Shown here: positions 5,246 through 41,534 of the stretch, piece after piece | Layout of the letters: the number at the start of each line of letters is the position of its first letter | Position numbering within the stretch: position 1 is the stretch's first letter | NCBI RefSeq assembly: GCF_028641065.1 | Contig: NC_073392.1 | Coordinates: forward strand, 15,314,001 to 15,378,000 | Direction: 5' to 3' | Source: Leucoraja erinacea | Lineage: Eukaryota | Length of the DNA: 64,000 nucleotides | Notes under the pieces: generated by a model | Databases searched by the model: none | Told to the model about the DNA's origin: nothing | Seen by the model: the letters and a program-made list of their open reading frames with translations, nothing else | Translations under genes and position numbers: made by a program

Positions 5246-5405
5246 TTTACCCCATAAATAGGGGCAATAATTGGTGTTAATATTTTTACCGTTGGGTTTC
5301 AATATCGTATTGATGTCTAATGATGTTAACTCTATTCTCCCCAAAATCAAGGCAGATGTGATGCATGGACTCGTTCCACGGCATGAAATCACAGAGCTTT
5401 AAAAT

Positions 5406-5517
5406 CTTCACATAGTCACTCACGTGACTCTGAAGTAAAATAGTAAGCTTAAACGAGAACTTACCAGTTTGAAGTTTGATCTTTATTTTATGAGGAGTAA
5501 CGTTGAGGGAATACGTG
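5406..5517 (+). repeat. DIRS internal complementary region (ICR), copy A
   Basis: 5406-5440 is the reverse complement of 2275-2309, and 5441-5517 of 5654-5730, with few mismatches. Confidence 0.95.
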
Positions 5518-6199
5518 CCCTCCGCTCCCACCCTTGATCATATCCTGAACTGGTATCTCTTCTCTAATCTTACTATGTTTAGACATTACAGTTATCTGTG
5601 ATTTCACACCGCTGCTTTGAAGAATGACACGCATGCGTCCTGGCGGGGTTCTTCACGTATTCCCTCAACGTTACTCCTCATAAAATAAAGATCAAACTTC
5701 AAACTGGTAAGTTCTCGTTTAATCTTACTATTTTAATTGATATTAAATTAGGCCTATCTCCTGTGGTATTGGTTAGGGTGGACTAGAAAATTATCTGGGC
5801 TTTAACAATGAGGATGTCTGTACCATGCAGGGGTGAGTGCTTTACAGCAAATAAAGTAACCTAAATTGATTTGAGATGGTACTGTACTCTGGTTAATTAA
5901 TTTGTGCTCTGGGATCTAGTTCCACAACTTTGCCTTTTATTCCACAAATTGCATTTATTTTATATGGATCTTTTTATCCATGAATTACATCAATATAATT
6001 TTTCATCCATTTGTTTTCTAAATGCTCTTGGCTAACAGGAAAGTGCACAACATCCCAGATCCCAAAGATTCTGCAAGAGCTTCTGTGATCAGCTGTCATC
6101 TGTGTATGTCATATGGTAGTTTCCCACGGACATTCCGGCTCCTCCACATCAGTTAAACCACAGTACTGGGTCCAAGGACCAGTTCCATCCCTTCATTGT

Positions 6200-36088: not shown

Positions 36089-38029
36089 GCTTCAATACAT
36101 TTGGCTCTATCCAGGGCAGAAGAGCCCATTTGATCAGTATTCATTCATTCACACCCTCTGTCATGTTCCAATGTGACTGTAATCATAGTATTAACAAAGT
36201 ACAGCAATTGAACAAGGTTTCCTCAACTGTGTGACTTTTGCACATTAGAAAAATAAAAGCTACAACTGTGCTGGATTGCAAGTTCCCTTTCAACTTTACT
36301 TCGGAGTCACGTGAGTGACTACGTGAAGAAGGGCCGTCCGTCTGCGTGCGCGTCATTACGTCTGAATGCAACGCGCACGACGGGCTGGCAGGCACTGTGT
36401 CCTCCCAGCCGTCGGGATGGGCAGGTAAGGAAAGTTGAACTACTTACCTGCGTTCTTTCGGGCTTGAAGCTTTTTTGTAGTTTCAGAGCCCAGATGTCGA
36501 GGAGACGGCCCGCGGGGATGTCGGCTGCCGAAGACCGCAGCATTCCAGGTAGCGGGCGACGGTCTTGTTCCTGACATTAGCGCCGACAGCAGAATCGGCA
36601 GGAGACTTTGTGCGGGAGGAGGAGCTCCATGGTTGTCCTGCGGGACGTAATACCACCCGCAAGTCTAACAAACCCGTTGACTCGGATGAGTCCGGGGAAG
36701 AGGGATACCCTCCCTCAACGAGAAGTTGCTCCAACAATGATCTGCTCCGAATGAGGGAGCAGTATCAGCACGGCTTACAGCAGTGCCGGTGCCGGGAGTC
36801 TCGCACATGGGGCAGCCCAATGTCTTCCCCATTGGAGGGGGAAGTACATATGGAAGAAACCACTCTGAATCAGAGTACAAAAGAAGAGGGGGGGAAACCT
36901 TCCCAGGGACAAGCAGAAGAAAGGAAGTAAGTAAGTAAGTTTTACTTATATTGCACTGTTTAAGTCAACACCAAAATGCTTTACATAAAAGGAATAATAA
37001 GCTTCCATACAAACAACAGAAAATAAGTACTTCTGCAATCATCCAGGTTCCACTGGGTGCTTCCCTGGATGGAATCTAGCTATTGACAGGCCGGGTATTA
37101 TGGAGAACCCGCAGGCAGCAGCACCTGTTTTCAGGGCTGCACAAATGTCTCCTGCTCTGAGGAGAGGAGCATTCATGGTCCGTTTCAGTCTGACCCAAAG
37201 CTAGAACCTCATTAAGGTCCACTGGAAGGGCCATGTCGGCACAGGTATCCTCAGGGGCCTGCGGCAGCACCTGTTTTCAGGGCTGCCTACGAATCTCACT
37301 CTCAGTGGAGGGGAGTGTGAGTGATCAGTAGGTAACTGATCTCGAATTTAAAGTATGAACATACTGAAGCATCAGTAGGCGACAACACACCCCACACCTC
37401 CATAGGGGGTAAGCGGTTCACTGAATCTGGTGGTAGCTTGAAAGCTGGGCACGGAAATAGGATCAGAGTCGTCTTTCAAGGCAGACTCAAAATAATGGCC
37501 AGAATTGTCCTACAAGGCAGGCTCAGTATGATGAGGTTTTCAGACCAGACCCAAGCAGAGGTCAGGAGAAACATGGAATCCACACTCCCTACCAGTCCAA
37601 CTCCCAATCAAGGAGAGAAAAGGAATCCGCATCAGGGGCCTTTGGGCTTACCACAAGACCACCGGTAGCCATGGAGGTAGGTGGGTCTGGGTTTACTGAA
37701 ACAAGGGATTGTGGACCAGTTACATGTTGGTAATTTACTCTTTTGTTCTTGTTCAAAATGACAATAACATGCATTTTCAGAACAGGTTTAAAAAAACAGA
37801 TAATAACATGTGATTATTTTTTACTGCAGAACATACATAGGTTCCAAGCAGACTTGGAACTTGGACTGGAGTTGTCATCGAGGCAGGCCCAGTATTTTTG
37901 GGCAGGATTGACATTCTGGACATGTGACAGATGGAGGATGTCACTTCATCCAGGTTTAACTCATTTGTGCAGTATAGACTTTCAGTACAGTAAATTTTTG
38001 TTACAATCTAACTACTGTTTTATAGGAGC

Positions 38030-39060
38030 TTCCTATAAAATGGTCACATGGCATGCATCAACCTCAAAGATGCATACTATTTGGTGTCTATTCACTAAGA
38101 ACAGGAGATATTTGAAGTTTAACTGTATGGCATGGATCTGCCAAATGGGTTGACATCAGCTCCTAGACTATTGACAAAACTACGGAAACCAATTCTGGGT
38201 CTACAAAGGTCTCAGAACCACATAGTAATGGCATATTTGGACAATTTCATTTTGGAGTCACCAAGAATTGGCAGAAGCATCAGTCAAAGCAAACCAAAAC
38301 CCTGTTTGATAGAATTGGTTACCTCATCCATCCAGTTAAATCAAAATTGACACCTACAAGGGTAATTGATTACCTAGAATTTACTATCAAAAACAGTAAA
38401 TATGTTGGTGACTTTGCCTAGGGGCAAACGATTATATTAATCAAGCCTGCTATGACCTGATAGTCAAATACTAGCCATCTATCAGGCAAACAGCGAGTGT
38501 AATTGGCAAATAGTAGCTGCATTTCCAGCAGTACGTACGGGCCTTTGCATTACCAGAATTTACAGCGAGCAAAGGAACGAACACTCAGATTCCATGCAGG
38601 CCAAATTGGCAAAACTATGGATTGCCAGCAGAGGCCATTGTTGAATAACTATGGTGGATAACGAACGTGAGAAAGCTCAAGGTAAATTTTGCTTGAAAGC
38701 CATCGAGGGTTCTTCAGACCTATGCAAGCGGCTAAGGATGGGGAGCCACTAACACAGTCTAGAGCTGTGGGGGCAGATGGAATGAGCAGGAGTCTGTAAT
38801 TCCCCAACACATGGAATCAATTACCCAGAATTGTTGGGGGCACAATTTGGACTCAAGGGTTTCTGTAGCAATATGCAACCGGTGCTTGTTCAAATTCAGA
38901 TTGATAACACCACTGCGGTGGCACATATCCATTAACAAGGGTGGTGTAAAATCTGTATCTTACGACAGATTGTCGAACCTCATTTGGCACTGGTGTATCA
39001 AGAGGAATATTTGGGAAATCTACGAGGTAGATATAACACGGTGACAGATGCTGGATCACG
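38030..39060 (+). pseudogene. DIRS reverse transcriptase and RNase H remnant
   Basis: INLKDAYY, RRYLKF, LPNGLTSAPRLLTK, MAYLDN. RNase H TYASG*GWGA and IDNTTAVA. Confidence 0.9.
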
Positions 39061-39074
39061 AATGTTTAATAACA

Positions 39075-39495
39075 ACACAGAATGGATGTTGAATCAGGCA
39101 GTATTTAACAAAATAACTACACGATTTGGCATACCAGATATTGATCTGTTTGCATCTAGACTAAACCATCAGTTACCCAGATATGTGTCCTGCAAGCAGG
39201 ATCCAGGAGCAAAGGCAGTGGATGCTTTCTCCCTCAATTGGGGAGGATTGTTTATGTATGATTTCCGCAAATTTGTCTCACAAACCGATGCTTGACCAAA
39301 ATCAAGTAAGACTAAGCCACAGGCATATTGGTAGTGCCAAATTGGCCTACTCAAGCCTGGTTCCCAAAATTTTTGGGAACTATAGTCCAGCCAGTTATGG
39401 CTGTACCCAAGAGCAGGGACCTCCTAGTGAACCCAGTTACAGGGAGTAATCATCCACTACACGAACATATTAATTTGTTGGTCTGCAGATTCTGA
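39075..39495 (+). pseudogene. DIRS DAM-methyltransferase-like domain remnant
   Basis: TEWMLNQAVF..FGIPDIDLFASRLNHQLPRYVS...DAFSLNW, LVVPNWPTQAWFP. Confidence 0.88.
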
Positions 39496-39549
39496 GGAGG
39501 CCTTTGTAAGGCATAGGACTGTCCGAACAAATACGACACAGTTTGGATA

Positions 39550-40335
39550 ACAGATGTCTTGGAGTTTCCTATCAACTCTGTACTATAACTATAAACAAAG
39601 TTATAGTGCAATCTATAGTGCCAGAGGCACACTCTCCTCCTATCTGATGCTGGAAGCAGGGCACGGGTCGATAGGAACGCACCCCTTTACAACAAAATTC
39701 ATGAACGGAATTTACAATTTAATACCTCTAAGACCAAGGTACACGGACACATGGGATGTGAGCGTGGTACTAACCCTACTTTGACAGTGGGGACCGCCTA
39801 TAACTAACCCTGAAGGTGGTATGCTGACAAAGAGTCCAGACACTGCAAAAGCTATGGTTGGACCACATGATCACCAATATGAACAACATAACATTCGTAA
39901 TCAGGAACCTGATAAAACATAGCAGGCCAGGAATGCCAGGGATGGAGATCCAGTTCTTGGCATATCCAGAGGACCTACGGTTATGTGTGTGGCAACATAT
40001 TAACGCCACTATCTGAGAGTTACAGAGAACCTCAGAGGCTCAGAACAATCGGTCCTCATCAGCCATAAAAAAATAAAAATAAAAAAATAAAAAAAACCAC
40101 ACCAGAAGGTGTCAACTCAAACCATCTCCAGATGGTCAAAGGGGGTAATGGCGGTAACAGAGTGAACATTTATATGGTTAAATCTCACTCCACCAGGGCT
40201 GCATCTACGTCGGCAGCAAGAGCATTGGATGTGCCTCTTGACGACATCCTAGTGGCTGCAGGATGGACGAATGAAATATGGTCCACCGGTTTTATAACAA
40301 ACCTATGACCGGACTGGGGGTGTTTGCACATACCA
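39550..40335 (+). pseudogene. DIRS tyrosine recombinase remnant
   Basis: SYSAIYSARGTLS, RPRYTDTWDV, TISRW, SHSTRAASTSAA, ILVAAGW, RFY. Confidence 0.9.
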
Positions 40336-40538
40336 TTTTTAGTTCTGTCCCTTAGTTTACCCCCAAGGTTGGGAGGGGTAACTAGTTTTTAAAAACTTTT
40401 CTTTCATTTAAAGCATCAGTGTCTTTACTTAATTACGTAGTGTCTGAATGCTTTAATGATGACACGCATCCATGGTCAATCCATTCAGTGTGTGACGCCT
40501 GGATTCATAACCGGCGTAAAATCACAGAGCTTTGAAAT

Positions 40539-40650
40539 CTTCACGTAGTCACTCACGTGACTCCGAAGTAAAATAGTAAGATTAAATGAGAACTTACCAG
40601 TTTGAAGTTTGATCTTGATTTTATGAGGAGTTACGATGAGCGATTACGTG
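40539..40650 (+). repeat. DIRS ICR, copy B
   Basis: Reverse complement of 36295-36328 and of 40794-40869. Confidence 0.95.
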
Positions 40651-41534
40651 CCCACCGCCCCCACCCTCATACTATCAAGGTCACATGTAAGTTCTAGTTT
40701 CTTCAATCTTACTATTCTCAGGTCTTCTTTTTATCTGTGATTTAACACCGCTGCTTTGAAGATTGACGCGCACGCAGACGGACGGTCCTTCTTCACGTAA
40801 TCGCTCATCGTAACTCCTCATAAAATCAAGATCAAATTCAAACTGGTAAGTTCTCGTTTAATCTTACTATTACATCCCATACATTTTGAAACAGTTTGTT
40901 CTCCTCTTTCGCATTGCTGATTATAAATATTGGACTTGACTAGAAGCCATTGTACCTTCAATATACAGGTCACAACATGGACTATCTTGGTTGCGCTAAG
41001 GATGAGGATTTTAGCAATAGCACGCCAGTGATACCACTTTTCAAACCCAACACATGCAAACATGACTATATCTCACACCATCCTGCACTATAAATACATT
41101 GCAGTTCCTGGAGCATCTTGCCTATCAGCATTCGGGGAATATCTTCATCAGCTGTTCATGCGACATGATCACTACCACTTTCTTGATGGCAATTGGAGAT
41201 GGCTATTAAATGCTGACCTTGTTTGTGATCTCCACATCCCAGTTCAGAATACAATGAACACTTTTCTTAACTTAATCCAGAGAGAACTGAGAAATCCGTC
41301 CACAAACACAGCTGTACTCAGATGACACAAGTGCAAGTTTCAATACCCTTTGGTATTTCATCAATTCTTCCTGCATTGAACTGATCAGAATTTCAAACTC
41401 TGGAAACCCATTCTAGTCAGACTAAACACCGATCTTGTTAAAATGCAATAGAAAATTACCTTATTAACATCTACGCTTTTTTAAAATTTTCCAATAATTA
41501 GCCACCCACCTGTACTAATCAAAGGTCTTATTGT

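Follow-up and report, generated by a model that had tools for sequence, protein, structure and literature searches.

A covarying stem around the ICR of DIRS1-like retrotransposons, with a predicted G-quadruplex at the ICR boundary and a competing local fold

The window analyzed here is a stretch of 64,000 nucleotides of the Leucoraja erinacea genome (NC_073392.1, positions 15,314,001 to 15,378,000 of the forward strand). It contains a full-length yet decayed DIRS1-like retrotransposon, copy B, and the 3' end of another, copy A. The features are as follows, in window coordinates.

36293..40871, plus strand: whole decayed DIRS1-like retrotransposon (copy B), recognized by its termini, its ICR matches and broken frames collinear with the distant relatives L132 and L144
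36295..36355, plus strand: left terminus and left ITR, from the pairings with the left ICR and the right ITR
38045..39498, plus strand: RT-RNase H-methyltransferase region with stops and frameshifts (tblastx to L132/L144)
39575..40310, plus strand: tyrosine recombinase region, broken (tblastx; SHSTRAA motif)
40512..40528, plus strand: 5' arm of P1, the outer stem and putative clamp
40530..40536, plus strand: CTTTGAA motif between P1 and the left ICR (by eye, unscored)
40538..40572, plus strand: left ICR, complement of the left terminus, opening with the 10-nt box common to the ITRs
40572..40650, plus strand: right ICR, with three possible partners, namely the 3' terminus, the spacer (P2-P5), and itself together with the left ICR
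40651..40666, minus strand: four C-runs on the plus strand (G-quadruplex-like on the minus strand), one of them bulged in the family, from the first base after the ICR onward
40665..40714, plus strand: spacer blocks that pair with right-ICR bases and form the 3' arms of P5, P4, P3 and P2
40734..40750, plus strand: 3' arm of P1
40754..40760, plus strand: second CTTTGAA motif, ahead of the right ITR
40764..40799, plus strand: conserved right ITR, with the shared box (40790-40799) at its end
40794..40871, plus strand: right terminus (divergent ITR and extension), complement of the right ICR
5340..5738, plus strand: 3' end of copy A, of a different subfamily and with an identical layout

Copy B carries a two-part ICR complementary to both termini, with a 3-nt overlap at the junction. 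The left terminus (36295-36329) is the exact complement of the left ICR, with no mismatches, and the right terminus is complementary to the right ICR over a perfect 43-bp run and a 35-nt run that contains one mismatch and is offset by one base. The short ITRs pair between 36312-36355 and 40764-40807 with three mismatches. RT, RNase H and methyltransferase, followed by the tyrosine recombinase, were identified through collinear tblastx matches to L132 and L144 across 38045-40275. PF00589 was matched by related copies, L059 and the better-preserved L081 of another subfamily; the coding fragments of copy B themselves gave only a Dam match at E=0.015, below the cut-off. The element ends in ATT and starts with ACT (one change), its flanks differ, and 30 loci share its end point. 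End-to-start junctions found in the genome (L250, L251 and L014) are tandem insertions rather than circles. Copy B itself is an ordinary decayed member of an abundant family, one 27-mer of which has 10,821 exact matches in the same genome; all 40 scored family matches there were 97-100% identical. Of 30 loci retrieved with PF00589 in a search of this genome for other DIRS designs, 29 had this one, and viral contigs yielded one unrelated pattern match and no recombinase relative.

Layout and sizes are like those of AcaDIRS1/2 of Aplysia and LgDIRS1/3 of Lottia, which also have a short conserved ITR (PMC3266345, Table 3). The shared features are an ATT end, a divergent ITR of ~30-36, a conserved ITR of ~31-36, an extension of ~48 and an ICR of ~40 + 86 nt, a shared box of at least 10 nt and a spacer separating the ICR from the right ITR; the 10-nt box common to the ICR and the ITRs is described in section 10 of that paper. 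Complementarity of the ICR to both ends is also a feature of Dictyostelium DIRS-1 (PMC7192593), whose single-stranded minus cDNA is assumed for copy B as well; unlike copy B, DIRS-1 lacks a spacer (PMC3266345, supplement S3), and its ITRs are long.

Between 40512 and 40869, the initial annotation had described five nested helices that would hide the ICR. All five are present: P1 (40512-40528/40734-40750; 15 Watson-Crick pairs plus a C.A and an A.A mismatch), P2 (40574-40583/40705-40714), P3 (40589-40597/40687-40695), P4 (40610-40619/40674-40683, one G.U) and P5 (40623-40628/40665-40670). Folding of 40505-40756 without the terminus produced the nested five-helix fold, with a z of -7.46 for RNA and of -7.13 for minus-strand DNA, and none of 200 shuffles folded as well. 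The local fold is thus real and competes with the duplex between the right ICR and the 3' end, as had been proposed, but its reach is narrower. The inner helices cover only the right ICR, and the left ICR (40538-40572) stays outside them. P2-P5 use the same bases as the ICR:terminus duplex, whereas P1 has no bases in that duplex and crosses it as a pseudoknot, so that P1 and the 79-bp terminal duplex would be hard to form simultaneously. As a 9-bp helix, P3 holds for copy B but not for its family: the T at 40688 is found in copy B alone, the other subfamily copies having G (30 of 30), and P3 is therefore shorter, 7+1 bp, in the family.

When the terminus was included, the ICR:terminus duplex reached -156.0 kcal/mol versus -98.4 for the local fold as RNA, and -98.3 versus -58.0 as minus DNA, differences of ~58 and 40 kcal/mol. 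Being far weaker than the terminal duplex, the local fold can only be a kinetic state or the state without the terminus, in which it is the minimum free energy (MFE) structure. A riboswitch-like device, as initially suggested, was not supported: the two folds lie far apart in energy, nothing suggests a ligand, and Rfam gave no match to a known aptamer family near the gathering score within 38500-41500.

Conservation was analyzed at two distances. From the L. erinacea genome, 110 3' ends were extracted, and the 107 with a parsable spacer formed 11 subfamilies, each represented by one natural medoid copy, in a sample biased towards the two subfamilies of the window and the start of one contig (C1). 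Spacer identity in these subfamilies was 0.66-0.89, with the right ICR nearly fixed. Distant relatives were collected by recombinase alignment at 79 metagenome and 7 genome-contig loci, the named homologues being from sea urchins and abalone. We chose 25 loci with a visibly complete 3' end, of which 24 gave a long inverted repeat (L138 was set by hand); dropping L209 (same family as L181) and L214 and L183 (long spacers) left 21 distant elements. Those compared are 40-50% identical to L081 in the recombinase, and in the five elements compared, four-fold sites are at chance level (17-21 of 53-61). DIRS recombinases also occur on seven contigs assigned to bacterial genome bins (L211-L217), whose termini are of animal type wherever the end is included; these contigs are probably host DNA inside bacterial bins.

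P1 is the most conserved part of the structure, and it is kept by pairing rather than by sequence. The arm sequences of distant elements are unrelated to one another. When all 5' arms were tried against all 3' arms in fixed windows, which had been picked after the stem was noticed by eye in these sequences, an element's own arms paired best in 18 of 22 cases (21 distant elements and the copy-B medoid; chance, ~1/22), with a mean energy of -21.8 kcal/mol for own arms versus -10.8 +/- 4.0 for mismatched partners. In 20 of the 21 distant elements, P1 stops 11-17 nt (13 +/- 2) short of the ICR box, and it lies 37-49 nt before the right terminus. Using an alignment of 15 rows (11 own-genome and 4 distant elements; the rows are related, so the counts do not amount to a probability), we found two-sided changes at 12 of 17 P1 pairs versus 1 of 11 P2 pairs. 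The P1 covariation score was reached by none of 500 shuffles and collapsed in slid controls. The stem was in place in four of eight further loci with enough sequence, some of which had previously been viewed by eye; of the others, two (L192 and L215) seem to be rearranged, the spacer of L183 is long, and no P1 was seen in L163. In L181 and L164 the stem is weak, and a search of the long-ITR element L214 did not find it. P1 pairing is thus maintained by two-sided changes across distant relatives.

Several short motifs accompany this layout. CTTTGAA, a near-palindrome, lies 3' of both P1 arms (40530-40536 and 40754-40760) in most elements, and a motif resembling it was also seen, by eye and unscored, after the P1 arm in distant elements; the pair would give P1 a two-fold symmetry and is a possible protein site. 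All 11 own-genome subfamilies retain a 5' splice-site-like motif in the right terminus (40845-40851, ~25 nt short of the end of the element), and so, at most slightly altered, do 19 of 21 distant elements (L185 lacks it, and L187 is truncated). The read tables gave no sign that it serves as a donor, and neither a pile of RNA ends nor one of loose read ends was found at the motif among the rows listed for two read sets of mostly passive-looking transcripts. Another splice-donor-like motif lies in the 5' leader of copy B (36421-36451), inside a 9-bp stem (GCAGGTAAG with CTTACCTGC). Within the left ICR, 40547-40562 form a separate 6-bp hairpin around a 4-nt loop, and most spacer-pairing elements are predicted to have a small hairpin in the left ICR.

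The mismatches within P1 carry information about the strand that pairs. Across the 21 distant elements, scored without regard to wobbles, internal mismatches on the plus strand were A.C in 13 cases, G.T in 2 and other in 17 (p = 0.007 for A.C versus G.T against even odds; composition expects 40% A.C). A.C on the plus strand is G.T on the minus strand, and the minus-strand P1 duplex was the more stable one in 16 of 22 elements and the less stable one in 4 (p = 0.002). This bias favors the minus-strand cDNA as the paired molecule. C-to-T deamination of single-stranded minus DNA could also cause an A.C excess; silent sites of distant elements show no excess of A over T (T 907, A 822), and those of own-genome elements are A-rich (A 243 versus T 130). 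The inner helices lean the opposite way, with G.U 25 versus A.C 13 on the plus strand, in counts that are not independent.

A motif that the initial annotation had missed marks the end of the ICR. At least two C-runs start at or within 1-2 bases of the ICR end in all 21 distant elements; the motif opens with CCC in 18 of them and has four full runs in 11. Complementarity between ICR and terminus ends at the base immediately preceding the first C-run. A bulge-tolerant pattern, written after seeing these sequences, starts no more than 2 nt from the ICR end in 15 of 21 elements and misses 6, against a background of ~4 starts in the 55 kb upstream in the same elements. Read on the minus strand, the runs make up a G-quadruplex motif whose outer loops are short and whose middle loop varies, four G-runs being present in 11 of 21 elements in full form and in 15 if a bulge is allowed. 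In general, G-run motifs of this type are stable, and polymerases stop at the 3' edge of the motif. Copy B's family has a bulged form; C40659 of copy B is T in 30 of 30 other copies. ViennaRNA predicted a quadruplex in five of seven elements tried, including a weak two-tier one in subfamily 9, and none for the copy-B subfamily medoid or L147.

The inner hairpin, in contrast to P1, is not the conserved part that it had been taken for. All 11 own-genome subfamilies have a spacer complementary to the right ICR (z 5-13; z = 8.8 for the copy-B subfamily medoid), with differing blocks. Among distant elements, complementarity was significant in 5 of 21 (L132, L134, L137, L144 and, over an 11-nt block, L187), borderline in L133 and absent in 15, and the blocks cannot be aligned. 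The RNAalifold consensus of the 15-row alignment, a check that had been proposed for the 3' ends, consists of P1 and an ICR self-hairpin, and lacks the spacer helices. Partition folding gave two designs, in which the right ICR pairs either with the spacer or with itself and the left ICR. It predicted 43-57 spacer-paired bases of the right ICR in the 11 own subfamilies, one of which shows such pairing on the minus strand only, and in L132, L134, L137 and L144. By these predictions, the right ICR has a local cover throughout, of which the spacer version is lineage-limited. The spacer-pairing elements cluster in the recombinase tree, with a support of only 41, and the two groups are not resolved. 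When the spacer was shuffled, 16 bases of the ICR self-hairpin were paired in RNA versus 1 with the real spacer; in minus DNA, shuffling made no difference. Freeing of the ICR priming box by the spacer on minus cDNA was not supported (0.36 versus 0.35 in silico).

Reads from the terminus bear on its state in cells. Nine T>C changes in the terminus (L242:2494-2549) are present in 3-31% of minus-lying single-cell RNA reads, and in 0.04-0.95% of the reads of a DNA run with the same species label, from a different individual. Among the rows listed, T>C occurred at at least 9 of 15 eligible sites versus 0 of 10 sites preceded by a G on the read strand (p = 0.003). Avoidance of a 5' G is the pattern expected of A-to-I editing, so the terminus/ICR region is likely double-stranded in cells. 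The data come from two single-cell runs of one study, a third RNA run showing changes at few sites only; the reads cannot be divided between sense ICR and antisense terminus and may derive from passive antisense transcripts. In the same element, reads bearing what we take to be a template-switch adapter start at L242:2523 on the plus strand (24 and 30 reads in two runs) and at 2504 on the minus strand (15 reads), possibly marking RNA 5' ends or RT stops inside the terminus/ICR.

The explanation that we prefer, tentatively and with a little less than even confidence, is that P1 acts as a clamp that keeps the ICR next to the right ITR for a template switch, that a quadruplex ends the copy, and that the terminus displaces an imperfect cover. 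It is position that suggests the template-switch and stop roles. The explanation borrows from Dictyostelium DIRS-1, whose transcript lacks its ends, whose cDNA is single-stranded and mostly linear, and whose ICR is required after first-strand synthesis; its primer is not known, and it tolerates a marker between ICR and right LTR (PMC7192593). On the minus cDNA, P1 at its fixed spacing would keep the ICR looped out next to the right ITR. The cDNA 3' end would anneal to the right ITR and extend to the shared box, and P1 would bring the ICR copy of that box near enough for a template switch. The polymerase would then copy the left and then the right ICR and halt at the predicted quadruplex, which would account for complementarity ending at the base just ahead of the first C-run. 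Within the loop, the right ICR is predicted to be always covered by an imperfect hairpin, formed with the spacer in one group of elements (including copy B) and by self-complementarity in the other. This cover would be a metastable state displaced by the perfect terminus, with no ligand switch, and its spacer version an optional, lineage-specific add-on that may matter more in RNA. The wobble lean of the inner helices, the crossing of P1 and the duplex, and the bulged run in the L. erinacea genome count against this explanation. So do the six distant elements that miss the G-run pattern, the elements in which P1 is weak or was not found, deamination as another possible cause of the A.C excess, the failure of the spacer to free the ICR box in silico, and, in DIRS-1, the missing spacer and the tolerated marker.

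A fold acting at the RNA level, which amounts to the initially proposed idea minus its ligand, seems somewhat unlikely. P1 and the inner hairpin would form co-transcriptionally before the terminus exists and delay the 79-bp duplex, which would draw Dicer or ADAR and block RT, or else they would constitute a packaging or priming signal; the C-runs would be sites for a poly(C)-binding protein. That the local fold is the MFE structure until the terminus appears, that the inner helices lean to G.U on the plus strand, and that the spacer displaces the ICR self-hairpin in RNA while being indifferent in minus DNA would all agree with this. So would the repression of DIRS-1 by RNAi (PMC7192593). However, the working molecule indicated by the P1 wobbles and the G-run motif is the minus strand rather than RNA, the terminal duplex is ahead by 58 kcal/mol, and the editing-like changes suggest that the region is double-stranded in cells, though these reads are perhaps passive antisense. 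To our knowledge, four runs with short outer loops also fit a quadruplex better than a protein site.

We consider it unlikely that the inner helices are a by-product, with only P1 and the C-runs functional; this account would be compatible with the clamp-and-stop explanation. Pieces of the terminus would be repeatedly written into the spacer by fold-back copying and then erode, as might be expected from the absence or borderline state of the helices in 16 distant elements, the different, unalignable blocks kept by subfamilies, the two-sided change in just one of 11 P2 pairs and the helix base that is a private mutation of copy B. Spacer identity between own-genome subfamilies (0.72) is also little above that of the upstream UTR (0.66; shuffled, 0.57), a weak test of constraint. 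Against this, the 11 own subfamilies and L132, L134, L137 and L144 keep spacer pairing despite saturated silent sites, none of the copies seen had a long perfect match in its spacer, and the spacer-pairing elements group, if weakly, in the recombinase tree. The persistence of complementarity in those four elements makes the decay of one old terminus duplicate, which had been named as a possible refutation of the hairpin, unlikely; repeated fold-back copying may still be the source of the spacer. In own-genome subfamilies (e.g., L083, L081 and L032), the terminus copy in the spacer runs across the circle junction, where it usually has an extra or changed base, and the splice-site-like motif is broken in the spacer copies of the own-genome medoids.

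The ICR appears usable as an insertion site: a new element, L249, is joined at another element's ICR junction, and L101 has two ICRs head to head. By analogy with integron attC sites, which recombine as a folded single strand (PMC3458562), the recombinase might bind a folded single-stranded circle junction, whose minus-strand sequence is that of the plus-strand ICR, with P1 stopping the internal ICR from acting as a second site; the ICR self-hairpin, a consensus structure with many two-sided changes that is stabler in the plus-ICR sequence in most self-folding elements, and the L249 junction would fit, but this is quite improbable, as left:right ICR pairing follows automatically from divergent ITRs (PMC3266345), the G-run motif is left unexplained and the standard model has a double-stranded circle.

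Returning to the clamp-and-stop explanation, its likeness to known systems is partial. Strand-displacement switches share the competing pairings of one strand, and integron attC the use of a tyrosine recombinase with a single-stranded intermediate; both are analogies only, there being no ligand here. In the open literature searched, we found no stem around the ICR, no quadruplex at its edge and no alternative hairpin. Other DIRS papers (Cappello 1985; Goodwin and Poulter 2001; Poulter and Goodwin 2005; Poulter and Butler 2015) could mention such features. The portions consulted of PMC9210276, PMC5633606 and PMC6681497 describe none of them. For AcaDIRS and LgDIRS, the sections of PMC3266345 considered here give spacer coordinates and, unlike the present analysis, no structure or role for the spacer, no enclosing stem, no C-run motif and no alternative hairpin, and a motif search in the part of its supplements covered gave nothing. 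The hairpin that PMC7192593 describes for DIRS-1 is 14 nt long, lies at the RNA 3' end and is a proposed primer; the text considered has no clamp around the ICR. The conserved novelty is the putative clamp and the putative stop motif, the initially annotated hairpin being one of two ICR covers.

More broadly, DIRS elements might contain a three-part cDNA folding machine made up of a sequence-free clamp passing the 3' end on from the ITR to the ICR, a metastable ICR cover achieved in two ways and displaced by the terminus, and a quadruplex stop, a generalization that we regard as possible but on balance doubtful. Of DIRS priming, template switch and circle closure, the parts of PMC7192593 considered here show only the need for the ICR and the single-stranded cDNA. 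The covarying stem, the strand bias pointing to cDNA and the boundary stop motif are three separately mutable parts with clear predictions. The repair of DIRS ends has been a paper model for decades, and the three-part machine, if true, would explain how the limits of the ICR are set.
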